Source of the DNA: Candidatus Woesearchaeota archaeon
GTDB taxonomy: Archaea > Nanobdellota > Nanobdellia > Woesearchaeales > JBAZVA01
NCBI GenBank assembly: GCA_041661165.1
Contig: JBAZVA010000003.1
Location: 1-53,972 of the forward strand
Direction: 5' to 3'
Length of the DNA: 53,972 bases
Shown: one piece after another, positions 188 to 49,325 of the stretch
Position numbering within the stretch: position 1 is the first letter of the stretch
Layout of the letters: each line of letters begins with the position of its first letter
The notes under the pieces: generated by a model
The model's input: only the letters and a program-made list of their open reading frames with translations
Database searches by the model: none
Told to the model about the DNA's origin: nothing
Program-made: the position numbers and the translations under genes

Positions 188-575
188 ACGTGCTTTTATT
201 TTTTCTCTTGAAGCAATGGTTGCACTTTTAATTTCTTTGCTTTTTATTGGTAGTATACTTTTTATGATAACTTCGATAAATGATGCTGTTGCATATTCTG
301 ATTCAATGCGACCTCTATCACAGGATATATTAACGTTATTGGACGATTCAAATCAAATGTTAAATGAAACAAGAGTATCTGTTTTGATTGATGATTTACT
401 TCCAAATAGATTTTGTGCAAGACTTGATGTGTCAAACACAGATGATTATTTGGTTTATTCTTATATTAAGAAAACTTGCAAAGAAACTGGCGAACAGTAT
501 ATAATTAGTAAGAGAACATATATTGATGGCGACAATATGTATGTGGCAAAAATTTTGATGTGGTATAATGACTAA
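180..575 (+). CDS. Type IV pilin-like protein (class III signal peptide)
   Basis: N-terminus MNKRAFIFSLEAMVALLISLLFIG: basic residues, then A|F, a conserved Glu and a hydrophobic helix, as in prepilins. The track ORF starts at TTG 168; ATG 180 is more likely. Sits directly upstream of the pilus ATPase genes. Confidence 0.55.
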   Translation: MNKRAFIFSLEAMVALLISLLFIGSILFMITSINDAVAYSDSMRPLSQDILTLLDDSNQMLNETRVSVLIDDLLPNRFCARLDVSNTDDYLVYSYIKKTCKETGEQYIISKRTYIDGDNMYVAKILMWYND

Positions 576-1347
576 AATAATTACTAATAATTTTATCAAT
601 AGACCTATTTGTTTTTTAAGAATTAAAAAAGTACAAAAAAAAGCAATGATATATAGTGTTATTTCAATAATTATGATAGGACTTTTATTTGTTTTTCTTT
701 TTATGTATCAAAATTATATCTCAAGTAAAGAATACGATTTACAAATAGCATTAGGAATTTTAGTTATTGATGATGTTGTTAAAGATATACAAAAAGATAT
801 GTTAAAACAATCTTATAATCATGTAAATATAGTTGGTCAGAATAAAATAATAAGAAACATTTCTTTTTTCAATTATACTTCTTATGAGAATTTTATTAAT
901 AATTATTATTTTAAAAAAGCAAACATAAATATGATTCTTGTTTCGAATGATTCAATAGTTACAAAAGATTTTGCGATTAACAAAGAAACTATATCAATAC
1001 TAAACGGCTCATATATTAGAACAGATATTTATATTCCTCAAAATAATTTTTCAATAATAGATCAATCCTATGCTTCTGGTAATTATAATTTGTCTATTTA
1101 TTTTTATAATCAAAGCGATATGCTACTTTTTTTCATAAATAAATTAGTGAATGTTTCAAAAGATAGTCATGTATATCTTTCAAATGGTGCTAATGTTACT
1201 ATAACAAAGAATAGTATTTATTTCAAAAATATGCTTTATTATACAATTGATGTATATACAAACAAAACTAATAATGTATGGTTTGGTTCAACTCTTAATG
1301 TTACAATAGGGAAAAATGGATATTTTGGTAATGTTTTGATGAATTAA
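568..1347 (+). CDS. Membrane-anchored surface protein with many N-glycosylation sequons (pilus-cluster associated)
   Basis: One N-terminal TM helix (MIYSVISIIMIGLLFVFLFM). About ten N-X-S/T sequons (NYTS, NGSY, NFSI, NLSI, NQSD, NVSK, NVTI, NKTN). Overlaps the upstream gene by 8 nt. Confidence 0.5.
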   Translation: MTKIITNNFINRPICFLRIKKVQKKAMIYSVISIIMIGLLFVFLFMYQNYISSKEYDLQIALGILVIDDVVKDIQKDMLKQSYNHVNIVGQNKIIRNISFFNYTSYENFINNYYFKKANINMILVSNDSIVTKDFAINKETISILNGSYIRTDIYIPQNNFSIIDQSYASGNYNLSIYFYNQSDMLLFFINKLVNVSKDSHVYLSNGANVTITKNSIYFKNMLYYTIDVYTNKTNNVWFGSTLNVTIGKNGYFGNVLMN

Positions 1348-1378
1348 TGTGATTTTCAAATGAGTGTGTTTTATAACT

Positions 1379-1486
1379 AAACGTTACCGGCAAACAGAAC
1401 AGTATGCAGTAATAAAATAAGATCTTTAGACTATGTGATTTAGATTGGTACAATTATTAGTAATGAAAGCAAGGCCGGTAACGTTT
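1379..1486 (+). repeat. Clamp-hairpin repeat, type A, copy 1
   Basis: aaacgtt-ACCGGCAAACAGAACAGTATGCAG...TCTTTAGA...ATTATTAG...GCAAGGCCGGT-aacgttt. Shares the clamp and interior motifs with 11 other copies. Confidence 0.85.
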
Positions 1487-1561
1487 TGGATATATTTTAC
1501 CAAACAACAACGTTTAAAAATTCAAGAGATTATTATATAATTATTAAAAAGATGGTGAACG

Positions 1562-2503
1562 ATGACTGAAAGTAGAAAAAACACTACAAAATTAAGCAGT
1601 GCAGTTACTCCACAGATAAGTGCCGCTATTCAAAAGATTAGTGCTGCTGCTAAGTTAAACAATGCAATTACGCAGAGTTCTGTTCCAAAACAAAAGCTTA
1701 TTCATTCTTTAAAAACAAAATTACGAGAAAAAGTTAGAGAAAAAGTTGTAAAAGAGCACAACATTAAGAGAAAAGATGAATATCATGATAAAGAATTCAA
1801 TCCTCACAAAAGAGTTCCTTCAGGAATACCAGGGTTTGATGATTTAACAGAAGGTGGATTTGTTTTAAATTCTATAAATCTTCTTGGTGGAGATGCTGGT
1901 TCTGGTAAGAGTCTTTTTGCTATGCAGTTTATTATTAAAGGTATAGAACAATTTAATGAGAGTGGTGTTTACATTTCTTTTGAAGAATCAAAAATTGTTG
2001 TGTTCGAACGTATGAAAGAATATGGTTGGGATTTGCAAAAACTCGAAAACGAAAAAAAGTTTGTATATTTGCAATATACGCCGGAACAAGTAGAGCAAGT
2101 TTTAGAGTCAGGTGGTGGAATAATTGCGGATGTTGTTCAATCAATTGGTGCAAAGCGTGTTGTTTTTGATTCGCTTACTGCGTTTGCTTTTTTGTTTGAT
2201 TCAGAATTTAAGCAAAGAAGTTCTCTTTTATCGTTATTTGCCCTTATTAGAAAATGGGGTTGTACTGCAATTTTAATTGCTGAAGAAGAGCCTGATTTAA
2301 AGGCTCACAAGGCAAATATTATGGAATTCGAATCAGATTGCGATGTTCTAATTTACAATATTTTAATGGAAAATAAACGTGAACACGTAGTAGAAATATA
2401 CAAAATGCGTGGGACTAATCATTCAAGAAATATTTATCCATTAAAAATTGCAGATGATGGAATTTCTATAAATAAATCTGTGTATATTCAACAGATTAAT
2501 TAG
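1562..2503 (+). CDS. KaiC/RecA-superfamily ATPase, ArlH(FlaH)-like
   Basis: GIPGFDDLTEGG...LLGGDAGSGKSLFAMQF (Walker A) and a VVFDSLTAF Walker B-like strand. Lies immediately upstream of the ArlI/PilB-like ATPase. Has an N-terminal extension of about 85 aa. Confidence 0.75.
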   Translation: MTESRKNTTKLSSAVTPQISAAIQKISAAAKLNNAITQSSVPKQKLIHSLKTKLREKVREKVVKEHNIKRKDEYHDKEFNPHKRVPSGIPGFDDLTEGGFVLNSINLLGGDAGSGKSLFAMQFIIKGIEQFNESGVYISFEESKIVVFERMKEYGWDLQKLENEKKFVYLQYTPEQVEQVLESGGGIIADVVQSIGAKRVVFDSLTAFAFLFDSEFKQRSSLLSLFALIRKWGCTAILIAEEEPDLKAHKANIMEFESDCDVLIYNILMENKREHVVEIYKMRGTNHSRNIYPLKIADDGISINKSVYIQQIN

Positions 2504-2641: not shown

Positions 2642-5248
2642 ATGGGAAAACAAACTAAAAAGAAAGTTTCTACTGTAAAGTCTGTTATAAGTAAATCTCC
2701 TGTTACAAACTCCACTTCGAAAAAGAAAACTATTGTTAAATCTAATTCTTCAAAAATCATATCAAATTCTTCAAAGATTAAATCAGATCCGCAAATTAAA
2801 TCAAATCCTCTCGCGATAAATTCCACTTCCTCAAAAATAACTCCTACGAAAAATACTGTAACAAAAATAACAACAACACAAACTGATGAAAAACTTATAT
2901 TTGTTCCAGAACAGATAAGAACTATTGCAGACGATATTTTAGATATTGTAAACGATTTTGAAAAAATTCATTTAAAACAGCTAATGACTAACATTCGTTT
3001 CAACGTAAATGCAAAAGGAGTTCCGATAGTGTGTGCATCCTGTGTTCATCTAAAAGATAAAGAAAATAGTGAAACTAAGTTTATAGGTTATGAACAGATA
3101 AAGAATATAAAAGTAAAAACTGTTAATGATAACGAAGAAAAAAATGATGTTATTTCTTCAAAAGAAAAAGATGATAAAACAGAGATAATATTAAAAAATA
3201 AAAACATAGAAACTAAGAAAGAAATTAAAAATGAAAAATCAAAACAAAAATACGAAATAAAAGAGTTTATAACAAAAATTATTGTTCATAGTGCCGGATG
3301 TGTGCACCAGCAAAAAAATAAATCTAAACTTGGAAGAGAGATATCTGTAAGTGTTTCAAAAAATATAGATATAATAGAGTACGATTTAGAAAAATGGGTT
3401 CATTCTTTAGCAGAATATGGTACGATAGAAGTTGTTTTTCCAATAAATATTTTTGCAGATATCTTAATTAAGAAAAAAGAGCAATCGTTGCAAAAAAAAG
3501 AGATGAAAGAAGAAACTTTGATAAATAAAAACAAGAAAAAACTGCACGAATACATTATTGAGCGAGATGGAGTTATATCAAAAGTTATTATTTGGGATAT
3601 TCCTACTGAGAATGTTGGTATTTACGAACTTATAAATTCGAAAATATGTATTGGAACAGAAAGTATGCTAAAAGGAGTTGGAAAAAAATTAACTGATGCA
3701 ATAAAAATTTCAAGTGAAGATATTACAGATCCAAAAAAAATGATGGAATTAAAAGATTCATTCAAAATATTGTCAGAGAAAATATTAGGAGACGTTTTTT
3801 CTACAAAAGACAAAAAAACGTTTGACTATTTGGTTGGAACCCTTGTTCATAGATTTTATGGTCTTGGTATTTTAGAATTAATAATTGCAGATGATTTTTT
3901 AGAAGAAATAGTAATAAATAGTTCAACAGAAGCAATTTCTGTATATCATAGAAAATATGGTTGGTTAAAGACTACGCAATATATTAACACAGAAATGGAT
4001 ATTTACAATATTTCTGCACAAATTGGTCGAAAAGTTGGACAGCAAATAAATTCTTTAAATCCAATAATGGATGCTCATCTTTTAACAGGTGACAGAGTAG
4101 CATCAACTATTTTCCCTGTTTCAACATCAGGAAATACAATAACAATACGACGTTTTTCAAGAAATCCTTGGTCACTTATTAATTTTATTTCAGACGATAT
4201 GCATTTATTTTCAAAAGAAATAGGTGCGATAGTTTGGCTTTGTATGCAATACGAATTAAATATTATTGTTGCAGGTGGAACTGCGTCAGGTAAAACTTCA
4301 GTTTTAAATATTCTTTCGTCAATGATTACTCCACAGAATAGAATTTTGTCAATTGAAGATACGCGTGAAATTCAACTTCCGGAAGCTTTACACTGGAATT
4401 GGATTCCTCTTACTAGTAAACGTCCAAATCCCGAAGGTCAAGGAGAAGTATCTATGCTTGATTTGATAGTTGCTGCACTTAGAATGCGTCCTGACAGAAT
4501 TATTGTAGGTGAAATACGTAAACCGGAACAAGCACAAGCATTATTTGAAGCAATGCATACTGGTCATTCAGTTTATGCTACACTTCATGCAGATACTGCT
4601 TCTCAAGTAATTGACAGATTAAAAGAAAAACCAATGAGTATTCCTGCAACAGAACTTTCTGCGCTTCATTTAATTATTATGCAGTATCGTGATAGAAGAA
4701 CAGGTAAAAGAAGAACAAGAGAAGTTGTTGAAATAACTCCATCAAAGGATGGGATATCTCTAAATCATTTATACAGATGGCAACCAAGAACAGATCGTTT
4801 TGAAAAAGTTAATGATTCAATTAGGATTTTCGAAGAACTATCGCTTCATACAGGAATGACTCCGCATGATATTGAAGAGGATCTTTCAAAAAAAGCAAAA
4901 TTACTTCAATGGATGTTAGATTGTAAAGTTTTTAACAATAATTTGATAGGTGATGTTTTCAGATATTATTACAAGGACCCAGAGTGGTTGTTCGAAGAAT
5001 CAAAAACAAAAACAGTACAGCAGGTATTAGACGAAGTTAATGAACAGAAATTTGCTTTTGTTGACAAAAAAGACGAAGAACTTCATTACAAAAAGGATAA
5101 AAAAGAACTTATTGCAGAGCAATTTTATAAAAAGTTTGATACTTATAACGACGAAAACTGGTTAAAATTCTTAAAAACAATTGACCTGTCTGATCCGGAA
5201 ACTGACGATTTATTATATGAAGTTAAAAAAGAATTAAAGAAGACATGA
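2642..5248 (+). CDS. Type IV pilus/archaellum assembly ATPase (ArlI/FlaI-PilB-VirB11 family) with a large N-terminal extension
   Basis: VAGGTASGKTSVLN (Walker A), SIEDTREI, RPDRIIVGEIR...EAMHTGHSVYATLHA (His box). 868 aa. The first ~380 aa are K/S/T-rich and low complexity, with two xCVH motifs. GGGGGG Shine-Dalgarno-like sequence upstream. Confidence 0.85.
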   Translation: MGKQTKKKVSTVKSVISKSPVTNSTSKKKTIVKSNSSKIISNSSKIKSDPQIKSNPLAINSTSSKITPTKNTVTKITTTQTDEKLIFVPEQIRTIADDILDIVNDFEKIHLKQLMTNIRFNVNAKGVPIVCASCVHLKDKENSETKFIGYEQIKNIKVKTVNDNEEKNDVISSKEKDDKTEIILKNKNIETKKEIKNEKSKQKYEIKEFITKIIVHSAGCVHQQKNKSKLGREISVSVSKNIDIIEYDLEKWVHSLAEYGTIEVVFPINIFADILIKKKEQSLQKKEMKEETLINKNKKKLHEYIIERDGVISKVIIWDIPTENVGIYELINSKICIGTESMLKGVGKKLTDAIKISSEDITDPKKMMELKDSFKILSEKILGDVFSTKDKKTFDYLVGTLVHRFYGLGILELIIADDFLEEIVINSSTEAISVYHRKYGWLKTTQYINTEMDIYNISAQIGRKVGQQINSLNPIMDAHLLTGDRVASTIFPVSTSGNTITIRRFSRNPWSLINFISDDMHLFSKEIGAIVWLCMQYELNIIVAGGTASGKTSVLNILSSMITPQNRILSIEDTREIQLPEALHWNWIPLTSKRPNPEGQGEVSMLDLIVAALRMRPDRIIVGEIRKPEQAQALFEAMHTGHSVYATLHADTASQVIDRLKEKPMSIPATELSALHLIIMQYRDRRTGKRRTREVVEITPSKDGISLNHLYRWQPRTDRFEKVNDSIRIFEELSLHTGMTPHDIEEDLSKKAKLLQWMLDCKVFNNNLIGDVFRYYYKDPEWLFEESKTKTVQQVLDEVNEQKFAFVDKKDEELHYKKDKKELIAEQFYKKFDTYNDENWLKFLKTIDLSDPETDDLLYEVKKELKKT

Positions 5249-5254
5249 TTTTAA

Positions 5255-5298
5255 GTAATTTGTTTTAAGAAAGTTTAAAGTGATTTGTTTTAAGAAAG
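5255..5298 (+). repeat. 19-bp direct repeat x2 (GTRATTTGTTTTAAGAAAG), 25-bp period
   Basis: 5255-5273 and 5280-5298 match at 18 of 19 positions. Followed by ATTTTGGCAA x2 at 5299-5308 and 5315-5324. Confidence 0.6.
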
Positions 5299-5356
5299 AT
5301 TTTGGCAAAGAATTATTTTGGCAATATGATATTTTATAGAAAAGTATCGTTTGTCG

Positions 5357-5494
5357 GTAAGTAATAAGTGTTTACTTCACCGGCAAACTACAAGTATTGA
5401 TGCTAAATATTTGCACATACTCCGTTGGCAAGAATGAGTGAAAATGATTGGCAATCGCAAGAGAGCCGGTTCGTGTGAACACTTATTATTTACA
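5357..5494 (+). mobile_element. Clamp-hairpin element, type B (MITE-like) with a 7-bp target-site duplication
   Basis: Arms GTAAGTAATAAGTGTTTAC / GTGAACACTTATTATTTAC enclose ACCGGCAAACTACAAG...GCTAAATATTTG...GAGAGCCGGT. Flanked by the direct repeat TTTGTCG (5350-5356 and 5495-5501). Confidence 0.8.
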
Positions 5495-5527
5495 TTTGTC
5501 GTATGTCTTTTTTGATTATAAATAAAT

Positions 5528-5578
5528 TAAGATTGTAGACGAACTAAAATTGTAAACAAACTAAGATTGTAAACAAAT
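5528..5578 (+). repeat. 17-bp tandem repeat x3 (TAARATTGTARACRAAY) upstream of the platform gene
   Basis: Units at 5528, 5545 and 5562 lie head to tail. A degenerate fourth unit spans 5579-5595. Confidence 0.7.
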
Positions 5579-5610
5579 TAAATTTTAAGATTAAATTTAT
5601 ATTAACCGTT

Positions 5611-6519
5611 GTGAATTTTACCATGGAAACTCCAAATAATCAACATATTCCTTTTATGCTGTTTAATGCAGAAAGATTAAAAAAATTAAAACGTTTAAGG
5701 GGAATAGCAAAACTTTTTTCTAAAATTATTCCTGAAGGAAACTCTTTAATGGAAAGAAGTGGTGTAAATTTATCTTGCGAAGATTACACAATTGGTGCAT
5801 TACTTTCCGGATTAGTTTATTTTTTATTATTTGGAGGAATGTTGTTTGTCGTATCAAATACTTTCAAGGGAAATATTGAAGAAGCACTTCGTGTTGGTGT
5901 AGGAGCGGGGTTTGGATTAGGATTTATGTTTTTCTTTTTAATGATGACTTATCCAAAAACACTTGCAAAGAAAAAAGCTGACATGGTTGATAGATATTTA
6001 ATTTATGCACTTAAAGATTTTTTAATGCAAATTTCTGCAGGTAATTCAGTTTATAATGCGTGTGTCGAGATAGCAAATGCAAATTATGGTCAGGTATCTA
6101 TAGAATTTGAAATTGTGGCAAAAAAGATTCAGACAGGGATGCCTGTAGAACAAGCATTGGAAGAAATTGCAAAACATAACGATTCAAAATATTTCAAGAA
6201 AGTTATTTGGCAGTTAGTTAATACAATACGTGCCGGTGCATCCTTAAAAGAAGCATTGTTTAGTATCATAAATGATCTTAATGAATCACAAAAATCAAAA
6301 ATAATAGGGTTTGCAAACGAACTTAATTTGTGGTCACTTATTTACATGCTTTTCGCAGTTGCCATTCCTTCTATTGGAACAACTATGATGGTAATATTAT
6401 CAGCATTTGGGGGTGCAAATTTATCTAGAGGTACATTTGTACTTTTTTTAGTTATTTGTGCATTTATTCAATTTGCAATAATCGGATTTATTAAAGCAAG
6501 AAGACCAGTTGTAGACTAA
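5611..6519 (+). CDS. Type II secretion system F-domain membrane protein (TadB-like / half of ArlJ-PilC)
   Basis: Single T2SF-like domain (YLIYALKDFLMQISAGNSVYNACVEIA...GMPVEQALEEIA) between TM helices. GTG start at 5611, alternative ATG at 5623. Confidence 0.7.
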   Translation: MNFTMETPNNQHIPFMLFNAERLKKLKRLRGIAKLFSKIIPEGNSLMERSGVNLSCEDYTIGALLSGLVYFLLFGGMLFVVSNTFKGNIEEALRVGVGAGFGLGFMFFFLMMTYPKTLAKKKADMVDRYLIYALKDFLMQISAGNSVYNACVEIANANYGQVSIEFEIVAKKIQTGMPVEQALEEIAKHNDSKYFKKVIWQLVNTIRAGASLKEALFSIINDLNESQKSKIIGFANELNLWSLIYMLFAVAIPSIGTTMMVILSAFGGANLSRGTFVLFLVICAFIQFAIIGFIKARRPVVD

Positions 6520-7529: not shown

Positions 7530-7540
7530 TTTTTTTAATT

Positions 7541-7652
7541 AATATTTCTACCGGCCTTTGCTTGTATAGCAAATAATAGTACTAATATTATCACTTATTC
7601 TAAAGAAGTAAATTTGTTGCCAGATACTGTTTTGCTTGCCGGTAGAAATATT
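7541..7652 (-). repeat. Clamp-hairpin repeat, type A, copy 2
   Basis: Reverse complement reads aatatttct-ACCGGCAAGCAAAACAGTATCTGG...CTTCTTTAGAATAAG...ATTATTTGCTAT...GCAAAGGCCGGT-agaaatatt. Confidence 0.85.
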
Positions 7653-7708
7653 TAAAACACACTTGCAGACAAAGAAAACAATATAAACACAGTTAGTATT
7701 TTAATATT

Positions 7709-8941: not shown

Positions 8942-9062
8942 CTGTAGAAAAATTTAACCGGCAAGCAGAATTATTACACAATATGAATTAGTTCTTTAGA
9001 TTCGGTAATTACGATGGGTAAATGATATTACAAATTATGCAAGGCCGGTATATTTTCTACAG
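8942..9062 (+). repeat. Clamp-hairpin repeat, type A, copy 3
   Basis: ctgtagaaaa...ACCGGCAAGCAGAATTATTACAC...GTTCTTTAGATTC...TTATGCAAGGCCGGT...ttttctacag. Confidence 0.85.
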
Positions 9063-10095: not shown

Positions 10096-10104
10096 TTCTT
10101 TTAA

Positions 10105-10212
10105 TTTTTTTGCCAGCCTTGCATACATAGCTAATAATAGTACCAAAAATATTATTTATTCTAAAGAGCAAAATTAGTTGCTGCATACTGTTTTGCGTGC
10201 TGGCAAAGTAAA
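10105..10212 (-). repeat. Clamp-hairpin repeat, type A, copy 4
   Basis: Reverse complement reads GCCAGCACGCAAAACAGTATGCAGCAAC...GCTCTTTAGAATAAAT...ATTATTAGCTATGTATGCAAGGCTGGC. The clamp is changed on both arms (GCCAGC/GCTGGC). Confidence 0.85.
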
Positions 10213-10239
10213 TTTGAGAAATCATCTCCCAAACGAATA

Positions 10240-10975: not shown

Positions 10976-11416
10976 TTACTTCTTATTTAATTTTTTTCTT
11001 AATACAAACTCATATAAAATCAAGAATCCAATTCCTACACAAATCATTGAATCTGCAATATTGAATGTCGGAAATGTAGGGAAAAATGGCATAGGAATAT
11101 AATCAATAACATATCCTAAAAATACCCTGTCAATAAAATTTGACAATGCACCAAAGAAAATTAAAGTATATGAAACCCTAAGTGATAAATCATTTGTTTT
11201 GTAATACATATATCCTAATATTCCCATAATTAATATTGCTGCAACAAGTAAAATCGTACGTTCGTTTTGCATAATTCCAAAACTAGCGCCAAAATTTAAT
11301 ACTGGGTTGTGGATATTACTTTTAATTAATTGATCAAGAATAACTAGTCCAACACCTATAGAAACTATTTGCATTTCTACTTTTTTAATACAATCAGAAA
11401 AATTCATATTTACCAC
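10976..11416 (-). CDS. lspA: Lipoprotein signal peptidase (signal peptidase II)
   Basis: NFGASFG, GALSNFIDRV and FPTFNIADSMI (both catalytic Asp motifs). Four TM helices. Confidence 0.8.
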   Translation of the reverse strand: MVNMNFSDCIKKVEMQIVSIGVGLVILDQLIKSNIHNPVLNFGASFGIMQNERTILLVAAILIMGILGYMYYKTNDLSLRVSYTLIFFGALSNFIDRVFLGYVIDYIPMPFFPTFPTFNIADSMICVGIGFLILYEFVLRKKLNKK

Positions 11417-13829: not shown

Positions 13830-13950
13830 TGTAGAAACGTTCTACCGGCAAGCAGAAGTAGTAAGCAATCAGAATTTGTTCTTTATACTAAAGCAACTAA
13901 AATAAGAAAATAATATTGTAAGTTAATCAAGGCAAGTGTACGTTTCTACA
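13830..13950 (+). repeat. Clamp-hairpin repeat, type A, copy 5 (degenerate 3' clamp)
   Basis: tgtagaaacgt-tct-ACCGGCAAGCAGAAGTAGTAAGC...GTTCTTTATAC...AATCAAGGCAAGT-gt-acgtttctaca. Confidence 0.75.
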
Positions 13951-13962
13951 GAACAGAAATAA

Positions 13963-14670
13963 TTATTTCATTTTTCTTTTTACTAATCTATCAATTTGCT
14001 CAAACAAACTTCTTTGCTCTGCTTTTTCGTCAGTGAATGTAAATTTAGAAAGAATGTTTTGTTTCTTAATTTTTGCTATGTTTTCAGTTAAATTTTCTTT
14101 TAATTCAACAAAATTGATTTTGATTCTTGGAAGGTGCATCCATCTTACGTTAGACATATATTTTCTAACTTTATTTACTAGTTTTAATGTATATATTGCA
14201 TCAATTACAAAAATTCCATATGTTATTCCTAATATGAACGATATATTGCTTGAAGGTAAAAATGTAAGCCAGGTATTTAATCTTGGAAACAACGTGTAAT
14301 AAAAAGCAATACCACTTAATGCCCAAACCACACTTTGTAATATTGAAATATATCCTCTATAATTCATAAAATAATTTGAATAATCCCATAATACAATTTT
14401 ATAATAACTTAGAAGTATTCCTGTAATAAGTTCAAGAACAGTAACAAGTATTGTAAATATTAATACTGTTTTCCATAATGGCAATGTTAAAGAAAAAATA
14501 AGATATGCAATTATAGTTCCAAATCCATATATTGGTAGATATGGTCCAAAAAAGAGTCCGGGATTTACTAGTTTGTGAGATACAAAAATTGGTCTCCAAA
14601 ATAATTCTAAAATCCACCCCAAAATACTTCCAATGCCGAATATGAAAAGTAATTCATGTAAATTTAGCAT
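13963..14670 (-). CDS. Polytopic membrane protein, putative ABC-transporter type IV family (CmpB-like)
   Basis: IGSILGWILELFW...NPGLFFGPYLPIYGFG resembles that family's signature. About 6 TM helices. Confidence 0.55.
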   Translation of the reverse strand: MLNLHELLFIFGIGSILGWILELFWRPIFVSHKLVNPGLFFGPYLPIYGFGTIIAYLIFSLTLPLWKTVLIFTILVTVLELITGILLSYYKIVLWDYSNYFMNYRGYISILQSVVWALSGIAFYYTLFPRLNTWLTFLPSSNISFILGITYGIFVIDAIYTLKLVNKVRKYMSNVRWMHLPRIKINFVELKENLTENIAKIKKQNILSKFTFTDEKAEQRSLFEQIDRLVKRKMK

Positions 14671-14720
14671 ATTTTACCTTTTAGTTATATCTTGAATTTA
14701 GTTATATATTAAACAATGCG

Positions 14721-14850
14721 AAATAAGTGTTCATACGTACCGGCTCTCATACGTTTGCATGTAAGTTTAGTTCATCCTCACAAACGATGTATGAACAAAC
14801 ATTTAGCTTTAATAATTGTAATTGCCGGTTGAATGAACACTTATTATTTT
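14721..14850 (-). mobile_element. Clamp-hairpin element, type B, inserted at the 3' end of tRNA-Leu
   Basis: Reverse complement reads ACCGGCAATTACAATTATTAAAGCTAAATGTTTG...GAGAGCCGGT and aligns along its length with the copy at 5357-5494. Arms AATAAGTGTTCAT/ATGAACACTTATT. Flanked by the direct repeat CAATGCG(AAA) at 14714-14723 and 14851-14860. Confidence 0.8.
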
Positions 14851-14853
14851 CAA

Positions 14854-14937
14854 TGCGAAAGACGGGGTTCGAACCCGCGCAAGCACTAAGCTATACGGCC
14901 CTCAACCGTACCCGTTTGACCGCTCCGGCACTCTCGC
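14854..14937 (-). tRNA. tRNA-Leu (anticodon GAG), class II with a long variable arm; no encoded CCA, no intron
   Basis: Folded by hand: GCGAGAG/CTTTCGC acceptor, TACGG-TTGAGGG-CCGTA anticodon arm, variable arm AGC-TTAGT-GCT, T arm GCGGG-TTCGAAC-CCCGT, discriminator A. Confidence 0.85.
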
Positions 14938-14953
14938 GTAAGTCACATAATCT

Positions 14954-15120
14954 AGCTATATCTGAATCGTCTTTACCAGCAAACAGACTCCTCGTAAGAG
15001 GCAGCCAAATGCAATGCGGCCGTGTATACAGAATGTATATCCAGTTCCAATCGGAAATTCTAATGAATACAATTATTTGCACTATATGTGAAGGCTGGTA
15101 AAAAGACTTCAGATATAGCT
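14954..15120 (+). repeat. Clamp-hairpin repeat, type A long variant, copy 6
   Basis: 27-nt arms AGCTATATCTGAATCGTCTTTACCAGC / GCTGGTAAAAAGACTTCAGATATAGCT. The interior carries extra hairpins CCTCGTAAGAGG and GCAGCCAAATGCAATGCGGCCGT. Confidence 0.85.
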
Positions 15121-15151
15121 TGTAAAGTCTAAATATTTTGTATAAGTAAGG

Positions 15152-15161
15152 TATTTAAATA
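15152..15161 (+). promoter_or_regulatory. TATA-like box (TATTTAAATA)
   Basis: Ends 21 nt upstream of ATG 15182. Confidence 0.35.
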
Positions 15162-15181
15162 CTCTTCTCTTACATTTGTGT

Positions 15182-15541
15182 ATGAAACACGTAAAGCCAG
15201 TGCATCACGTTTTGTCAGAGCTTCATGCAAAGAAACGTTCAGGGGAACAATTATCTGGTAAAGATAAAATAAAGCATTTAATAGAATCGGAAATTCGTTC
15301 TGCACAGCATAAACATTACAAGTCAATGAGAAATTATGTTATTTTGTTTTCTGTTTCACTTATAGTTTTGATGTTAATTTACATTTACAATCCAAAACTT
15401 CCACCATTTGTTGGAATAATAAACATTTGCGCAGCAATAATAATATTTTTCGTCGGAATGATTCATTTAAACAACGGATATAAAAGAGAGATTAGTGATT
15501 ATTTGATGATTGAAGAACAGGTTAATAATTTAAAAAAATAA
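15182..15541 (+). CDS. Hypothetical small membrane protein (two TM helices)
   Basis: ORF track 15176-15541; ATG at 15182 preferred. Two hydrophobic helices in the C-terminal half. Confidence 0.45.
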   Translation: MKHVKPVHHVLSELHAKKRSGEQLSGKDKIKHLIESEIRSAQHKHYKSMRNYVILFSVSLIVLMLIYIYNPKLPPFVGIINICAAIIIFFVGMIHLNNGYKREISDYLMIEEQVNNLKK

Positions 15542-16367: not shown

Positions 16368-16383
16368 TTTTTTACATTTTATA

Positions 16384-16497
16384 AAATATTTCTACCTGCC
16401 TTTACATCTGATACTAATAATTGTGTTGATTAGAAGCACTGGAAGATATCCACATACATTATTCTGCATACCGTTCTGCTTGCCGGTAGAAATATTT
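16384..16497 (-). repeat. Clamp-hairpin repeat, type A, copy 7
   Basis: Reverse complement reads aaatatttct-ACCGGCAAGCAGAACGGTATGCAGAATAATG...CTTCCAGTGCTTCTAATC...ATTATTAG...GTAAAGGCAGGT-agaaatattt. Confidence 0.85.
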
Positions 16498-16500
16498 CTA

Positions 16501-20233: not shown

Positions 20234-20415
20234 TTTATCCCTAATCTTAAATCTATTTATATTAAAACTTACAAGTGATAATTAATATAAAAAGTTACCT
20301 CACTTAGAATCATCCAAGTGAGTAATAATTGTTCGTTTCATAGGCAATTATTGATACTAACTTAATTTGCTATTTTAATTAACGTGAATACTATTATTTA
20401 TTTATCTATCTTAGG

Positions 20416-20576
20416 CTCTGTCCGAAAAGTCTGGCGGCAAGCAAAACCTCGTTAGAGGTAGCTAAGTGCAACGCGACTACATTCCTACGCAAGTATGATT
20501 GTTTTTCCAATAGTTACAAAAATAAATATAATTATTCACGCAATTTATGCAAGGCCGCCAAAGACTTCGGACAGAG
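20416..20576 (+). repeat. Clamp-hairpin repeat, type A long variant, copy 8
   Basis: ctctgtccgaaaagtct-GGCGGCAAGCAAAACCTCGTTAGAGGTAGCTAAGTGCAACGCGACTAC...TTATGCAAGGCCGCC-aaagacttcggacagag. Confidence 0.85.
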
Positions 20577-21140: not shown

Positions 21141-21247
21141 AGTCTTTACCGGCAGGCAGAATAGTATGCAGAATAATATATGTGCATATCTTCCAGTGCT
21201 TCTAATTTAGACAATTATTTGCCTATATGTAAAGGCTGGTAAAGACT
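21141..21247 (+). repeat. Clamp-hairpin repeat, type A, copy 9
   Basis: agtcttt-ACCGGCAGGCAGAATAGTATGCAGAATAAT...CTTCCAGTGCTTCTAATT...ATTATTTGCCTAT...GTAAAGGCTGGT-aaagact. Confidence 0.85.
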
Positions 21248-21306
21248 TTTTTAGAGAGTCTTTTAAATACCAACATTTAATAAAAGAATATATTTTTTAG
21301 AGTTAT

Positions 21307-23981: not shown

Positions 23982-24830
23982 ATGTTAGATTTTCATACGC
24001 ACCCGGCAAATTGGGGAATAAAACCAGTTTTGTTTAATATTGGCAACGTTCCTGTAACTTCTTATGCTTTCTTTGTTATTCTTGGTTTAATTGCAGGTCT
24101 TTTAGTTTATTATTATCTTGCAAAAAAAGAAAAACTTCATTCAGAAAATTCTTTCTATGTGCTTGTTGCAGGTTTGTGCGGCGGAATTTTAGGTGCAAAA
24201 ATTCCTATTTGGATTTTAAATTTTCCATTGCTTTTGCAAACAAATAATGTCGCATTATTTCTTTCTGGGAGAACTATTATCGGAGGCCTGATTGGAGGAA
24301 CAATTGCAGTTATTATTGTTAAAAAAGTTTTAAAAATCAATCAAAAATTAGGAAACCTGTTTGCTCCGGCGATTGCTTTAGGAGTTGCAATAGGTAGAAT
24401 TGGATGTTTTTTTGCAGGTTGCTGTTATGGAACTCCAACCACTTTGCCGTGGGGGGTTGATTTTGGAGATGGTTTACTTCGTCATCCAACTCAGATTTAC
24501 GAATCTATCTTTATGTTTGGGATGTTTATTTTTTTAATTATAAAGCAAAATAAAAATACAAAGCAAAAAAAATCAAAAGAAATAAAACCAGGATATTTAT
24601 TTTACATTCTCATGAATTTCTATTTTGTATTTAGATTTTTTGAAGAGTTCATTCGTGATAATCCAAGATATTTTTATTTGACTTTATTCCAATATTTATC
24701 TATTGCTGCGCTTTTATTCATAAATGGCAAATATCTGTTTGAAAATAGAAAGAAAGGAAATTTAGAAAATATGCAAGTACAAACTCGAAGTATGGAAAAG
24801 AATATAAAGAGAAAAAGAAAGAGTAAGTAG
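23982..24830 (+). CDS. lgt: Prolipoprotein diacylglyceryl transferase
   Basis: VTSYAFFVILGLIAG..., GRTIIGGLIGG, GRIGCFFAGCCYGTPT, WGVDFGDG, RHPTQIYES are all canonical Lgt motifs. Confidence 0.85.
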   Translation: MLDFHTHPANWGIKPVLFNIGNVPVTSYAFFVILGLIAGLLVYYYLAKKEKLHSENSFYVLVAGLCGGILGAKIPIWILNFPLLLQTNNVALFLSGRTIIGGLIGGTIAVIIVKKVLKINQKLGNLFAPAIALGVAIGRIGCFFAGCCYGTPTTLPWGVDFGDGLLRHPTQIYESIFMFGMFIFLIIKQNKNTKQKKSKEIKPGYLFYILMNFYFVFRFFEEFIRDNPRYFYLTLFQYLSIAALLFINGKYLFENRKKGNLENMQVQTRSMEKNIKRKRKSK

Positions 24831-28218: not shown

Positions 28219-29124
28219 TTAAGGAAAAATACATTCTTTTATAGATTTATCATCTCTTAAACGTTTAAACACTGGTGCTCTTAATTTTTCATCCTTAGTA
28301 AATTCCAGATATTCAATTTCTGCAACATGCTTGGGCCTGACAAAAATTATCTCTTTAGGAAGATTTTTACTTTCGTCTGACAACTTATTTTTAATATCTT
28401 CTTTTATTTTTGACATACTTACTTCAAATGTATCAATAAATTTTTCAGAAAACCCTGTTCCGACTTTTCCGACATAAATGATTTTTTTGTTTTTGTACAA
28501 TCCGAGAGCAAGACTGGAAATTTTTCTTTTACCTTTTGTAAATCCTATTATAATGCAATCGATTGTATTTAGATTTTTTATCTTAAGCCAATTGTCAGAA
28601 CGTATACCTTCAAGATAAAAACTATTACTTTTTTTTGCTATGATTCCTTCCATTTTGCGTTTTTTCATGGAAAGAAATAATTTTTTTCCCTTCGTGGTAT
28701 AAAAAATTGTTTGAAGTGATTTGTTTTCAATTATTGTCTTATTGAGAATTTTTTTTCTTTGTAAAAGAGGTATATTTTTTAAATTTTTACCATTTTTGTT
28801 TAGGATGTCAAATACAACAAACACTGCTTCTTTTTCTCCTTCTTGAGTTTGTAAAATATGAAAATCTGGATTTCCTTCTTTGTTGTAAGAAACAATCTCT
28901 CCATCAAGAATACACGATTTTGCTTTTATTTTTGACAAATCAATATTTTCAAATCTTTTTGTAATATCTATGTTGTTTCTGCTCTTAAATATATTTCTCT
29001 TATTTTTATTAAAATATAATATTGCTCTGATACCATCTAATTTTGGCTCATAAATATGTCCTTTCGTATTTAAAACATCAATATGACTTTTATCATTCAC
29101 AAGTTTTGCAAGCATTGGTTTCAT
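28219..29124 (-). CDS. ligD: ATP-dependent DNA ligase (stand-alone LigD ligase-domain type)
   Basis: YEPKLDGIRA (motif I, KxDG), ILDGEIV, VFDIL, EGIIAK. Confidence 0.85.
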   Translation of the reverse strand: MKPMLAKLVNDKSHIDVLNTKGHIYEPKLDGIRAILYFNKNKRNIFKSRNNIDITKRFENIDLSKIKAKSCILDGEIVSYNKEGNPDFHILQTQEGEKEAVFVVFDILNKNGKNLKNIPLLQRKKILNKTIIENKSLQTIFYTTKGKKLFLSMKKRKMEGIIAKKSNSFYLEGIRSDNWLKIKNLNTIDCIIIGFTKGKRKISSLALGLYKNKKIIYVGKVGTGFSEKFIDTFEVSMSKIKEDIKNKLSDESKNLPKEIIFVRPKHVAEIEYLEFTKDEKLRAPVFKRLRDDKSIKECIFP

Positions 29125-29125
29125 A

Positions 29126-30079
29126 TTACGATTCTCCTTTTTTAGTTTCTTTATTAATGTCTTTTTTTAGTTTTTTCATGATTTTGTTTAATGATTTGGA
29201 ATTTTTGTAAAAATATTTTAAAGGGTCACTTTTTGTTTGCATTCTTTTTAATACGTCATTTATATCGAAACTATCAGGATTTGTTTTTCTAAGTTCTTCC
29301 CAAAAAATTGGAAGTGCCACTGTCGCAGTCAAAGTTGCTCTTACAGAATAAGGAGAGATAGATGTTTGTTGAGGGGAATTTCTGTTAATATCAATGAAAA
29401 TCTTATTAATACGTTTATTTTTTGAAAGTTCTGTCGTTATATTTTTTGGATTATCCTGTTCTATTACTTTTGCAATCTTTAATGCAAACTCTCTTACTTT
29501 GTCGTTTGAATTTTTAGGTTTTATGGGTACTATTATGTGATATCCTTTTTTTCCTGTAGCTAATAAATACGGATTTAATCCAATATCAGTCAAAAGCTGT
29601 TTTAATTTTAGAACTGTGTTTTTTAATAATACACTATTTTTTTCTGACGGATCAATATCAAACACCATTTTGTCAGGATATCCTAAATTTTCAGTCGTAC
29701 TTGTCCATGTATGTATTTCACCAACTTGCGATGCGACATAAATAAGACACTCTTTATTATTACATATTATATAATCTACTTCCCCTTCTTTTTTTTTGAT
29801 TTTTATGTGTTCTATCCATGATGGAAATGAATTTGGTTTATTTTTCTGGTAAAATCCCTCTTTATCTGCACCGTTTGGGAAACGATACATGACGATGGGT
29901 CTTTTTCTTATAGAATGAAGCATGATATTTGCAATTTTTTTATAATACTCAACATATTCCCGTTTTGTAAATTTTTTAAATATTTTTTTTTCGGAATTAG
30001 AAATATTAATTATGTCGTCATCTTTTCTTTTGTATTTTTTATCCATATGATTATCCGTTTGAGAAGTCATACTTATCAT
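29126..30079 (-). CDS. NHEJ polymerase/primase (LigD PolDom-like, archaeo-eukaryotic primase fold)
   Basis: MVFDIDP, GKKGYHIIVPI and SPYSVR are motifs of LigD polymerase domains. Confidence 0.85.
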   Translation of the reverse strand: MISMTSQTDNHMDKKYKRKDDDIINISNSEKKIFKKFTKREYVEYYKKIANIMLHSIRKRPIVMYRFPNGADKEGFYQKNKPNSFPSWIEHIKIKKKEGEVDYIICNNKECLIYVASQVGEIHTWTSTTENLGYPDKMVFDIDPSEKNSVLLKNTVLKLKQLLTDIGLNPYLLATGKKGYHIIVPIKPKNSNDKVREFALKIAKVIEQDNPKNITTELSKNKRINKIFIDINRNSPQQTSISPYSVRATLTATVALPIFWEELRKTNPDSFDINDVLKRMQTKSDPLKYFYKNSKSLNKIMKKLKKDINKETKKGES

Positions 30080-30587
30080 CCTTCATCTTAATAATAAGCC
30101 AGTTTTTTTTGTTTTCATTAAACTTGGTATTGACTAACGCATAATTTCCTTTCAAAACTCTTCCTTTAAGATTCACTTCAATCTGTCCCTGTAAATAAGA
30201 TTCTTTCATACTGATTTTTCTTATGTTTCTGTAATTTCCTTTATCCCATATTTTAACTTTTCCCGCTCCGTATTCTCCTTTTGGAATCTGTCCTTGAAAA
30301 TCCGCATATTTAATCGGGTGGTCTTCTGTTTCTACAGCAAGATGTTTTTCAGAAACAGTCGTCGGAATTCCTTTCGGGACCGCCCACGATCTTAATACTC
30401 CGTCTATTTCTAGTCTAAAATCGTAATGGAGTCTTGTAGCATTATGTTCCTGAACCACGAATATTGTTCCTTTTCTTTTCTTGACAGCATCAGTTTCTTT
30501 TGGTTCGTTGGTCTTTTCAAAATCTCTTTTTTCCTTGTACGTACTTAATTTTGAGGATTTAATTGATGATTCGTTTGATGATTTCAT
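30051..30587 (-). CDS. LigD 3'-phosphoesterase-domain protein
   Basis: FVVQEHNATRLHYDFRLEIDGVLRSWAVPKGIP. Confidence 0.85.
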   Translation of the reverse strand: MKSSNESSIKSSKLSTYKEKRDFEKTNEPKETDAVKKRKGTIFVVQEHNATRLHYDFRLEIDGVLRSWAVPKGIPTTVSEKHLAVETEDHPIKYADFQGQIPKGEYGAGKVKIWDKGNYRNIRKISMKESYLQGQIEVNLKGRVLKGNYALVNTKFNENKKNWLIIKMKDDKYDFSNG

Positions 30588-31360
30588 AGGCTCGCCTTCA
30601 AACTTTCAACAAGATTTTTCTCTTTTTTGATTTTTTTACTTTCAGCTTTTACTTCAATTAATTCTCCTTTTGTTTTCTTTTTGATAAGTTTTAGAAGTTC
30701 ATCTCTGAAAGTATCCTTAAAATCGGTGATATCAAATTCTTCCTTTTCAAGTTTTCCAATTAACTGTTTTGCAAGTTCAAGTTCTTGGGTTGAAAGTTTT
30801 GGTTTGTTATCTATAAAATCTATATCTTCAATATTTCTAATCTCATAAGCGTAATTTAATGTCGTTAAAAGAAGACCATTCTTATATGATTCTATTGCAC
30901 ACACATATTCTTTTTCACGCATGACAAATCTTCCAATCGCGGCTTTCGCAGACTGCTGTAAAACCTCTTTTAATAAAAAATATGCTTTCTCATTCTTCTT
31001 GTCCGGTCCGATAAAATAAGTGTGGTCAAAATATATAGGATCAATTTGTCTCGAATGAATTATCTCAACAATGTTAATAGTGTCAGTTTTTCCTGGTTTT
31101 AGATTCTGAAGTTCCTCTTTTTCAAATATATAAAATTTATTTTTTGATATTTCTATGCCTTTTACGATATCGTCCCATGAAACTTCTTTGTCGTGCTTTG
31201 AACACCATCTTTTATTTTTTATAGGGACATTATCTTTTTTATGAAGAAGCCTAAATCCAACCTTGTTTTGTGATTCTACTGCAGAATAAAGTCTTACAGG
31301 AATATTAACAAGTCCAAACGAAATTGATCCGGTCCAAATTGTTTTCATATTTTCACCCAA
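30584..31360 (-). CDS. ku: Ku DNA end-binding protein
   Basis: IWTGSISFGLVNIPVRLYSA...FRLLHK. Overlaps the phosphoesterase gene by 4 nt. Confidence 0.9.
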   Translation of the reverse strand: MGENMKTIWTGSISFGLVNIPVRLYSAVESQNKVGFRLLHKKDNVPIKNKRWCSKHDKEVSWDDIVKGIEISKNKFYIFEKEELQNLKPGKTDTINIVEIIHSRQIDPIYFDHTYFIGPDKKNEKAYFLLKEVLQQSAKAAIGRFVMREKEYVCAIESYKNGLLLTTLNYAYEIRNIEDIDFIDNKPKLSTQELELAKQLIGKLEKEEFDITDFKDTFRDELLKLIKKKTKGELIEVKAESKKIKKEKNLVESLKASL

Positions 31361-33527: not shown

Positions 33528-33565
33528 TATCTCACTGTTTTATTATAATATTTTATTTTGTACTA

Positions 33566-33666
33566 TTTTTACCAGCCTTGATTTGATATCTAAATATTTG
33601 TGCTAATTAGAAGCTACTATTGGAATCACATCATAATCTGCATACAAATTCGTTTGCTGGTAAAAA
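33566..33666 (-). repeat. Clamp-hairpin repeat, type A, copy 10
   Basis: Reverse complement reads ttttt-ACCAGCAAACGAATTTGTATGCAGATTATG...GTAGCTTCTAATTAG...AATATTTAG...AATCAAGGCTGGT-aaaaa. Confidence 0.85.
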
Positions 33667-33676
33667 CATTTTTATT

Positions 33677-40321: not shown

Positions 40322-42145
40322 TTATTTAATCAAAGGAACTTTCTTTGAAAAAGTATCTTTTCCAATTTTTGCATTTACTATATAAATTCCATTTGCTAAT
40401 GGTTTATTTATATTAACTGCATTTGGTCCTTTATTTGCCATTCCATTTTGTGAATATATTGTTCTTCCGGCAACATCAACTATTTTAATAGAAGTAGGTA
40501 GATTATTTTCAGCTAAATATTCTATTCTTATTCCGTTATTTGATTGATAACATCTTGAAAGTTCTGTTTTTGGTAATGCTAAATTTTCCTTTGAAACTCC
40601 TGTGTTACTTGGAACAGTTACAATAAATGAGTTTTTATATGCTCCTGCGAATTGATCATTGTAATATGTTGAATCATTACATAATCTATATATTTTATCC
40701 ATGTTTTTTTCAGCTTCTTGTCCGATTATTAATATTGCATCAAAAAAGCCATCTTCTTTTGAAATCATAAAGAAACCAGCTTGATTATTATACATTGATT
40801 TTCCAAGGTCAACTATTTGTTTATTTGAACTTTTTAGTGCATCTTCAAGAGCTATACAAACAAGATTTTCAGTGTGTCTTGGTGTTATTATTCCAGTATC
40901 TGATTTTACATCTGAATCAATATCTAATAGATCAATTAATTTTGAAAAATTTTCAGAATTAATTCCATTAAATGATAATGAGTTTGAAAAATATTTTTTA
41001 GATGGAATAATTGTTTCTTCTGAGTTCATTTGATAAAATAAATCATTCAAATTACGAGGAATATCTCTATCATATATGTCTACATTTTGTTCTACTCTTG
41101 CAAGCGTATCATTTCCATCCACATAAATTGATATTATATCAGTAGTTGCATCTTTTGTCGAATCTGATGTGAATTTATAACCAAATCCTACTTCCTCGTT
41201 TGATTTTAATTTTCCTAAAGATAGTCTTGATGTTTTTGTTTTTATTGGTAATTTTACAACTTCAATTAATGCAGAAGTAGTTGGAATTGTAGTTATATAT
41301 AATGATTTTATTAAAACATCTTGTCCACCAATAGTGTAAGTGTTTCCTTCAGACACCGTTTTTTGAGTTGAGCCAATTTTTAATATTGCATTATGGTTGT
41401 CTGCATTTGCTCCAAGTAGTGTGTATTCTTTTCCATCGATATTAATTGTTTCTCCTAATTCTATAGATTTACTTCCTGTTTGTTCTGTAACAATAACCTC
41501 TAGGTTTGGTATGTCTTTAGTACCAAGATTAATCATACTATGCGATACATTTCTTTTAGAAAATTTTTTAACGCTATTATTTTCATTAACGTAACTAGGT
41601 AATAATAATGAATTTTTTAAATTAAATTCAACAACAGTATATACTGTATCTGATCTATTGCCATTATTATCAACAGACCATATAGGAATAATTTTTGTAG
41701 TATCTTTTAATAATACATCATTAGATGAAATATATCTTTTTGAAATAAATTCTTCTGTTAAAACGCTATCATTTGGATTAAAAGAATAAACTGTCCAATT
41801 TGCATCATTATTAAATAATGATATTTGTTCTAAATTTATAATGTCTGAGTTAAATTCTTTAATTGTCATGTTTGAAGGCATAGTCATATTACTTGTTGAT
41901 GAACCATTTTGTGCATATACTCCAAAAATTCCTGCTGTGTCTTTTGCAGTTACATTTGGAATTCTAAAATTTCCCATATCTACTCTGATTGTTTCAGGTG
42001 CAGTCACAACTGGTTTGATTGTATCATTTGGATTTTTTGGAGGGTAATTACTTCCACATAAATATCCTTGTGCTAAACTAGCAAGTAATGCAGTAGTTAA
42101 TCCTGCTTTTATTAGTGTATTTTTTAAATTTAATTTTTTCATCAT
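40322..42145 (-). CDS. Secreted surface protein with a T9SS-type (Por_Secre_tail-like) C-terminal beta-sandwich domain
   Basis: N-terminal signal peptide. C-terminus IKIVDVAGRTIYSQNGMANKGPNAVNINKPLANGIYIVNAKIGKDTFSKKVPLIK fits the T9SS type A sorting-domain pattern. Confidence 0.65.
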   Translation of the reverse strand: MMKKLNLKNTLIKAGLTTALLASLAQGYLCGSNYPPKNPNDTIKPVVTAPETIRVDMGNFRIPNVTAKDTAGIFGVYAQNGSSTSNMTMPSNMTIKEFNSDIINLEQISLFNNDANWTVYSFNPNDSVLTEEFISKRYISSNDVLLKDTTKIIPIWSVDNNGNRSDTVYTVVEFNLKNSLLLPSYVNENNSVKKFSKRNVSHSMINLGTKDIPNLEVIVTEQTGSKSIELGETINIDGKEYTLLGANADNHNAILKIGSTQKTVSEGNTYTIGGQDVLIKSLYITTIPTTSALIEVVKLPIKTKTSRLSLGKLKSNEEVGFGYKFTSDSTKDATTDIISIYVDGNDTLARVEQNVDIYDRDIPRNLNDLFYQMNSEETIIPSKKYFSNSLSFNGINSENFSKLIDLLDIDSDVKSDTGIITPRHTENLVCIALEDALKSSNKQIVDLGKSMYNNQAGFFMISKEDGFFDAILIIGQEAEKNMDKIYRLCNDSTYYNDQFAGAYKNSFIVTVPSNTGVSKENLALPKTELSRCYQSNNGIRIEYLAENNLPTSIKIVDVAGRTIYSQNGMANKGPNAVNINKPLANGIYIVNAKIGKDTFSKKVPLIK

Positions 42146-43538: not shown

Positions 43539-43697
43539 ACTGTCCGAAAAGTCAGGCGGCAAGCAAAACCTCGCAGAGGTGGCCAAGTGCAACGCGGCTA
43601 CATTATGCAGCAATTTAATAACTCTTTAAAATAAATGACTTTATCGGCACCATTATTTACGCGAGTACAATAAAGGCCGCTAAAGACTTCGGACAGT
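43539..43697 (+). repeat. Clamp-hairpin repeat, type A long variant, copy 11
   Basis: actgtccgaaaagtca-GGCGGCAAGCAAAACCTCGCAGAGGTGGCCAAGTGCAACGCGGCTACATTATGCAG...AATAAAGGCCGCT-aaagacttcggacagt. Confidence 0.85.
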
Positions 43698-49107: not shown

Positions 49108-49207
49108 TCGACTAAAATTAAATAATCAATTAATTTGGTTAAATATCCTATAACTACTCTCCAATTACATCTTTATAAATTTATCTTATTTTTGGGTTTC
49201 CTAACTC

Positions 49208-49325
49208 CACATTACTGGCAAACAGAACATTATGCAGCAATTATGTTTGTTCTTTAGAATAAGTAATTATATTGGTACTATTATTAGCTATAACAATGAA
49301 GGCCGGTAAAGACTTCTTTAATGTG
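49208..49325 (+). repeat. Clamp-hairpin repeat, type A, copy 12 (left outer arm truncated)
   Basis: cacatt-ACTGGCAAACAGAACATTATGCAGCAATTATG...GTTCTTTAGAATAAG...ATTATTAGCTAT...AATGAAGGCCGGT-aaagacttctt-taatgtg. Confidence 0.85.

Follow-up and report, generated by a model that had tools for sequence, protein, structure and literature searches.

A DDE-type transposase that acts in trans on a MITE leaves a characteristic trace, a duplication whose length is fixed and whose sequence varies, on either side of symmetrical inverted ends. Families that make duplications of 8 bp include IS6, ISL3, IS1595, IS256 and ISH6. Elements of the IS200/IS605 type have no inverted terminal repeats and produce no target duplication, and they carry subterminal hairpins; integration by an integrase classically leaves the 3' end of a tRNA duplicated. 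The ends of IS66-family elements are 20–30-bp inverted repeats starting with GTAAGCG, flanked by 8-bp direct repeats, and most members of this family come from Proteobacteria (PMC11946415). ISDge4, an element of the ISBst12 group, has GTGACT/GTAACT ends and an 8-bp repeat (PMC12898284), and captured IS66 elements gave 8-bp repeats, as did IS6 and IS21 elements in the same study (PMC3281130). Here we compare with these systems a family of small repeats, type B, one copy of which lies at the 3' end of a tRNA-Leu gene. We conclude that type B is very probably a MITE that makes an 8-bp target-site duplication (TSD), and that the copy at tRNA-Leu arose in this way.

The whole stretch of DNA that we analyzed, called the window, is 53,972 nt long and has a G+C content of ∼28%. 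Its genes include a Cdc48-type ATPase and a KaiC/ATPase/2×T2SSF pilus operon, among named homologs the closest belong to Candidatus Woesearchaeota, Nanoarchaeota and Nanobdellota, and close relatives of the organism are very rare in databases. A methanogen such as Methanobrevibacter, which the low GC would suit, was set aside as the source because the named homologs indicate DPANN archaea. Bacterial-looking genes are found at 28219–31360 (minus strand), 23982–24830 (plus), 10976–11416 (minus) and 40322–42145 (minus); for end-joining repair this set has Ku and split ligase and polymerase domains of LigD, for lipoprotein maturation it has Lgt and a gene resembling signal peptidase II, and it also includes MutS and a surface protein that bears a C-terminal sorting domain of the T9SS type.

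Two copies of type B lie in the window. Copy 1 occupies 5357–5493 (or 5494) on the plus strand; it is 137 bp long (GTAAGTAATAAGTGTTTAC...GTGAACACTTATTATTTAC), scores 123 bits against the family HMM over model positions 1–135, and has the arm pattern at its ends. Copy 2 occupies 14723–14851 on the minus strand; it is 129 bp long (GAAAATAATAAGTGTTCAT...ATGAACACTTAT on the tRNA-sense strand), scores 124 bits, and its right arm is without one 7-nt ACTTATT unit of the consensus. A sequence-only reading of this DNA had described two copies on opposite strands sharing inverted arms, and both were indeed present: they are 75% identical across ∼129 nt (BLAST E = 1e-19), and all four of their ends fit the pattern AATAAGTGTTYAYN{3,4}ACCGGC, for which the chance expectation is 0 matches.

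We used this arm pattern, taken from the window copies, as the query for genome, metagenome and viral scans. Among JGI metagenome contigs, 41 loci fitted the pattern; eight of them carry a full-length type B copy, all in metagenome Ga0172379. With the two window copies, to which these eight are 74–82% identical, the family comprises ten full-length copies, whose pairwise similarity is 73–89% and ends at the same element boundaries in every pair. A contig of Ga0172379 (L077) is 99.92% identical to window positions 423–1716, indicating that the same organism is present in that metagenome, and the type A repeats of the window (described below) also occur in three of the eight metagenome loci. Because of this near-identical contig and these shared type A repeats, the eight copies are most likely genome-wide copies of the same organism, judging from sequence. 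Type B is thus dispersed, with two copies in the window and eight in a metagenome that holds the same organism, and its loci carry archaeal EF-2/EF-1α, FtsZ and ATP-dependent DNA ligase genes. The organism is present in samples SRR18595301, ERZ27249449 and IMG 3300014208, and a sister species in ERZ27247973; near-identical contigs from two other samples (L001, L002 and L029) all bear the window insertions. Since the copies differ by 11–27%, they give no sign of recent type B activity.

Neither the family nor the organism turned up in 185,579 species-representative genomes scanned with the arm pattern, where the 26 matches were single, scattered and all due to chance; one of the chance matches, in a Methanobrevibacter MAG (L008), has no similarity past the arm pattern. 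The viral scan with the same pattern gave two matches, both by chance, and BLAST against phage records and a search of Rfam gave no match to type B. Type B is therefore a new sequence family of a known element kind, the MITE. A possible decayed, internally deleted relic of type B lies at 20318–20399 on the plus strand (GTGAGTAATAATTGTTCG...GAATACTATTATTTAT), adjoining a type C repeat and with 3 mismatches in 18 positions of its left arm; it is a weak case, not detected by the family HMM at E < 0.01. A weak HMM match in another contig (L053) falls inside an FKBP-type isomerase gene and was set aside as a chance match. One of the near-identical contigs, L001 (from Logan SRR18595301), ends inside type B copy 2, its position 1 corresponding to window position 14842; assemblies of the organism break at type B repeats, which is probably why so few copies can be retrieved. 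A look-up of MutS, aimed at sequence past the window, gave no record.

The consensus of the ten-copy alignment is ∼135 bp long (GTAAGTAATAAGTGTTCATTTCACCGGCAAC...GAGAGCCGGTACGTATGAACACTTATTACTTAY), and individual copies range from 129 to 137 bp. The terminal inverted repeats are imperfect and extend over 17–19 bp (5'-GTAAGTAATAAGTGTTCA...TGAACACTTATTACTTAC-3', arms GTAAGTAATAAGTGTT). The interior diverges, but the arm core TAATAAGTGTT is the same at all 20 ends, a count that is partly built in, because the search pattern forced conservation at one end of each metagenome copy; the outermost six bases of the arms are more variable than the core. Just inside the terminal repeats lies a second, nearly invariant inverted pair, ACCGGC/GCCGGT, and the right arm of the consensus holds an internal direct repeat, ACTTAT-T-ACTTAT. 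We found no reading frame that is open through all copies.

The ends, together with the inner CCGGC/GCCGG pair, can form a long hairpin, and the copies are intergenic and often sit beside other hairpin-like repeats, as would be the case if type B were a set of structured small-RNA genes or regulatory hairpins spread by recombination, with incidental flanking repeats. The consensus fold of −26.5 kcal/mol consists of the inverted ends and the inner pair only, however, and the invariance of the stem pairs makes them uninformative. When we tested the fold for covariation, a compensatory change was seen in 2 of the 29 predicted pairs, and the covariation term was +0.2 kcal/mol. The absence of covariation in the interior, the lack of an Rfam match, and the direct repeats in fixed register, which this explanation does not account for, make it quite improbable. 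An RNA role and a MITE origin are compatible with each other, and any RNA role may be secondary.

The other hairpin-like repeats are of two types. Type A repeats are ∼110–170-nt elements with the core TACCGGCAAGCAGAAC...AAGGCCGGTA, of which the window holds at least 10, at 1376–1489, 7540–7654, 8953–9051, 10103–10217, 13839–13889 (partial), 14965–15111, 16383–16499, 21141–21253, 33564–33671 and 49202–49319. In the metagenome loci they occur at 4868–4992 of L057, 1584–1689 of L047 and 3849–3978 of L033, and a type A copy is found within 50 nt of four of the ten type B copies. The outer stems of type A differ in sequence from copy to copy while complementarity is kept (TTAAATATTTCTACCGGC/GCCGGTAGAAATATTAA versus ACTAAACGTTACCGGC/GCCGGTAACGTTT), and the stem of the copy upstream of tRNA-Leu reaches ∼30 bp. 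This pattern, unlike that of a normal MITE, suggests selection for the hairpin or insertion into palindromes. Around type A, the sequence-only reading noted no duplications as clear as those of type B. Type C, a ∼160-nt variant without a match in Rfam, is found at 20415–20575 and 43540–43697, with the outer pair CTGTCCGAA...TTCGGACAG and the inner pair GGCGGCAAGC...AAGGCCGCC; its internal block CCTCG..AGAGGTAGCTAAGTGCAACGCG is shared with the type A copy upstream of tRNA-Leu. The ACCGGC/GCCGGT motif is common to type B and to the unrelated type A and type C repeats. Homology between types A and B stops at the short CCGGC motif, so type B is not a type A core that has acquired other arms.

To define the duplications, we set the element boundaries by the family consensus (GTAAGT...ACTTAC) and then compared the flanks of each copy register by register. 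In the 8-bp register, the flanks match at 54 of 80 positions (68%), compared with 32% in the cross-copy control, and 54 matches were attained by 1 in 200,000 permutations; with the boundaries unshifted, registers of 5, 6, 7, 9 and 10 bp gave 39–47% matches. The two flanks are identical over 8/8 positions in L033 (TGTTTGTG on both sides) and in L047 (CTTTTTGA on both sides), and agree at 7/8 in window copy 1 (left GTTTGTCG at 5349–5356, right ATTTGTCG at 5494–5501) and L055 (TTTCCATC / TTTTCATC), and at 6/8 in L057 (GTTTTGTG / GTTTTATA), so that five of the ten copies match at 6/8 or better. Agreement falls to 5/8 in L031 (GGGAAAAT / GAAAAAAA), 4/8 in L034 (ATAAATAG / TATGATAG), and 3/8 in both L041 (AACATAAA / GTGAAAAT) and L062 (TACTTTTC / ATTTGTTA), the last three copies lying near the level of the cross-copy control. 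Window copy 2 matches at 3/8 in the consensus register and at 8/8 after restoration of the 7-nt unit missing from its right arm. The duplicated flank sequences vary from copy to copy, as expected for transposition and against site-specific integration.

These results bear out the earlier proposal that type B is a mobile element making target-site duplications, and the tabulation of flanks in further copies, suggested along with it, was passed by eight more copies. They also change the length of the stagger. The direct repeats reported around the window copies are present (TTTGTCG at 5350–5356 and 5495–5501 for copy 1), and from them a 7-bp stagger had been read; the consensus register gives 8 bp instead, as seen most plainly in the four copies that match at 7/8 or 8/8. 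Judged from the flanks, the type B duplication is 8 bp, and 9 bp is also compatible with them, the ninth position (the last base of the element) matching in six of the ten copies. We favor 8 bp because the ends are then symmetrical (G1...C) and because the flanks of L047 agree at all 8 positions but not at the ninth.

Short repeats arise readily in AT-rich DNA, and type B would be a dispersed repeat with no evidence of transposition if the flank matches were due to chance. When we searched leniently for the longest word common to the surroundings of two window points separated by 130 nt, it measured at least 7 nt in 16% of trials, and a clear duplication is missing in three to four of the ten copies. 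The same search found at least 10 nt in 0.36% of trials (P ∼ 0.004), and because of this difference a 7-nt repeat is not significant alone, whereas the 10-nt repeat at tRNA-Leu is. The main support for the duplication comes from the family, in which ten copies define the boundaries and the 8-nt flanks match far above controls. Given also two copies that match at 8/8, chance is hardly credible as an explanation, and the permutation test rejects it.

Copy 2 shows what such a duplication does at a tRNA gene. The tRNA-Leu gene (anticodon GAG) lies at 14854–14937 on the minus strand; it is intact and has no encoded CCA, as identified by ARAGORN and by a full-length match to Rfam RF00005 (46.7 bits). 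A perfect 10-nt repeat, CAATGCGAAA, is found at 14714–14723 and 14851–14860, as first reported, with the last 7 nt of tRNA-Leu inside it. This repeat is best read, in the register of the family, as an 8-bp duplication, TTCGCATT, plus one neighboring base at either end. The duplication has its tRNA-proximal copy at 14852–14859 (minus strand), where 14854–14859 are the last 6 nt of tRNA-Leu; in the distal copy, at 14715–14722 (minus strand), these 6 nt of the tRNA 3' end recur. The further two bases that match are a T of the shortened right arm and the G that begins the element, and the flanking repeat looks like 10 bp because the right arm lost one 7-nt unit. Copy 2 fits the 8-bp register only if this 7-nt deletion is assumed, and we infer that it occurred by slippage. 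Deleting one 7-nt unit from the consensus right arm yields exactly the observed ...GAACACTTAT-TTCGCATT-GTTTAAT (hyphens mark the junctions), and restoring the ACTTATT unit in copy 2 yields the consensus right end, a length of 136 bp and arms that match at 16/19 positions.

Thus the tRNA 3' end was duplicated and the gene left intact at full length, in agreement with the sequence-only reading. That reading placed the insertion exactly at the tRNA 3' end, and here the position shifts slightly: the insertion point lies 2 bp downstream of the discriminator base. With copy 2 and one TTCGCATT removed in silico, the empty site becomes an ordinary tRNA end, after which come a T-rich trailer and the TATA-like TTTAATATATAA that belongs to the CmpB-like gene downstream.

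A perfect 10-nt repeat of a tRNA 3' end could also be the attachment-site core of a tyrosine-integrase element, of which copy 2 would be a site-specific integrative remnant. The other nine copies differ in their flanks, however, and copy 2 is the only one of the ten to abut a tRNA 3' end. In L047, the type B copy lies 45 nt upstream of a tRNA-Val. The element is ∼135 bp long without an integrase, and the 8-bp register is constant around symmetrical inverted ends. Together, these features make an integrase remnant highly improbable. The L047 interval is another tRNA amid repeats: tRNA-Val (GAC) at 1308–1382 (minus strand) is followed by type B at 1428–1556 and type A at 1584–1689, all within 1308–1689. 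For two of the ten type B copies, a tRNA is found no more than 50 nt away; a rough estimate puts this at a marginal P ∼ 0.06, and we make no claim of a tRNA preference.

Two annotation points concern the same region. A 124-aa ORF at 14727–15101 (plus strand) is called as a gene on public contig L002; it crosses copy 2 of type B, the tRNA-Leu gene and a type A repeat in antisense orientation, and is almost certainly spurious. A whole-window Rfam search at gathering thresholds returned nothing, missing the tRNA as well, while a search of 14500–15300 alone detected the tRNA at 46.7 bits, above the 29-bit cut-off; the whole-window search missed it because the speed filters lost it in the AT-rich window.

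The features of copy 2 suggest the following sequence of events. A transposase supplied in trans would bind the arms and join the element to a target cut with an 8-bp stagger, and gap repair would then duplicate the 8 bp. For copy 2, the target would have been ...GTCT-TTCGCATT-GTTTAAT..., in which the duplicated bases take in the final 6 nt of tRNA-Leu (GAG) plus 2 nt of trailer. Of the two resulting copies of these bases, the proximal one would rebuild the end of the gene, which is why the tRNA is intact, and the distal one would be left behind as a 6-nt tRNA fragment. Later, slippage would have removed one unit of the right-arm ACTTAT-T-ACTTAT repeat.

It is instructive to compare the occupied sites with relatives. 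Neither window copy had an empty counterpart among the near-identical contigs and the relatives that we checked. For the tRNA-Leu site, there was a single closer CmpB-like homolog (59% identity), on a 1.2-kb contig with no tRNA and no synteny. The L041 copy lies 7 nt past the EF-2 stop codon, in the EF-2/EF-1α spacer; in a sister species (L074, EF-1α 93% identical) the element is absent, and the stop-codon context and the downstream promoter block are the same. The L041 duplication is not checkable there because the flanks have diverged, and the comparison has only 17 nt of left flank. Copy 1 lies in a 362-nt spacer between the pilus ATPase gene (2642–5248) and the first T2SSF-like gene (5611–6519). 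In L075, the nearest available relative for the pilus operon (same operon, pilus ATPase 61% identical), the ATPase and T2SSF-like genes overlap by 4 nt at the point where the window has this spacer, and the 15-kb contig of L075 carries no type A or type B repeats. Tandem repeats also lie beside copy 1, with two ∼24-nt units (TTTAAGTAATTTGTTTTAAGAAAG) upstream at 5250–5300 and three 17-nt ATTGTAAACAAACTAAG-like units downstream at 5515–5582.

Which enzyme could have moved type B? Mobilization would have been in trans, and neither the window, the eight loci nor the scans of genomes, metagenomes and viruses revealed a transposase or a longer element with type B arms. The terminal inverted repeats and 8-bp duplications rule out a palindrome-associated element derived from IS200/IS605. 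The best lead is an IS66-like enzyme, because the ends begin with GTAAG (in some copies GTGAGT or GTGACT) and the duplication is 8 bp. The consensus start, GTAAGTA, agrees with the IS66 hallmark GTAAGCG at 5/7 bases; G1 is invariant, positions 2–5 vary in some copies, and two copies have GTGAGT or GTGACT ends. From this comparison, we regard an IS66-family (TnpC-type DDE) transposase as a tentative candidate for the partner, one that falls somewhat short of probable.

The same MITE with the same 8-bp duplication could instead have been mobilized by a family other than IS66. As no partner was found, the family has to be judged by just two features; in one capture study, 8-bp repeats were made by IS6 and IS21 elements as well (PMC3281130), and the agreement with the IS66 hallmark is limited to the 5/7 bases noted above. 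Against another family, a GTAAG start is described for IS66 alone among the families considered here (PMC11946415), and the GTGAGT/GTGACT ends of two copies resemble those of ISDge4 of the ISBst12 group. A non-IS66 partner is thus a real possibility, although one that falls clearly short of probable. Given the failed search for a partner and the motif that type B has in common with other repeats, we also consider that an enzyme from outside the genome (from a host cell or a virus) mobilizes type B, with no matching transposase encoded, or that the shared ACCGGC/GCCGGT pair marks a common host factor or processing site; we think it unlikely that either is the case. If an outside enzyme were responsible, type B would form part of a burst of small repeats peculiar to this lineage, within a reduced DPANN genome; if the shared pair marked a common factor or processing site, type A, B and C repeats would have a common cellular role.

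Our results are direct evidence, at the sequence level, for transposition of a small non-coding repeat in an uncultivated Woesearchaeota/Nanoarchaeota-like (DPANN) archaeon, whose 54-kb window has an unusually high density of short repeats. With a cut staggered by 8 bp, the element can enter the last bases of a tRNA gene harmlessly, and the corrected length of the duplication points to an IS66-like transposase as the enzyme to seek. The insertion at tRNA-Leu is a clear but ordinary case of a known element kind and involves no new mechanism. The family should be useful for annotating and assembling the genome of a poorly sampled archaeal lineage, and will not surprise the specialist.

In relation to described systems, type B shares with the IS66 family, including the single-ORF ISBst12 group, the GTAAG start and the 8-bp duplication, and its arms, at 17–19 bp, come close to the 20–30 bp of IS66. 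It differs from that family in being ∼135 bp long and non-coding, with no tnpA, tnpB or tnpC, in its GTAAGTA ends and in its DPANN host. Prokaryotic MITEs in general, among them MITEAba12 (PMC6382973) and those covered by reviews and surveys (PMC10969869, PMC11602168), resemble type B in being small and non-coding, with inverted ends and TSDs, and in occurring as multiple diverged intergenic copies that need a transposase in trans. Compared with these MITEs, type B has a new sequence and a second, inner inverted pair, ACCGGC/GCCGGT. Finally, copy 2 resembles tRNA-targeting integrative elements in that a short direct repeat of the tRNA 3' end flanks it and the gene is intact; it differs from them in being 129 bp long without an integrase, and in that the tRNA end would have been regenerated through an 8-bp staggered cut.
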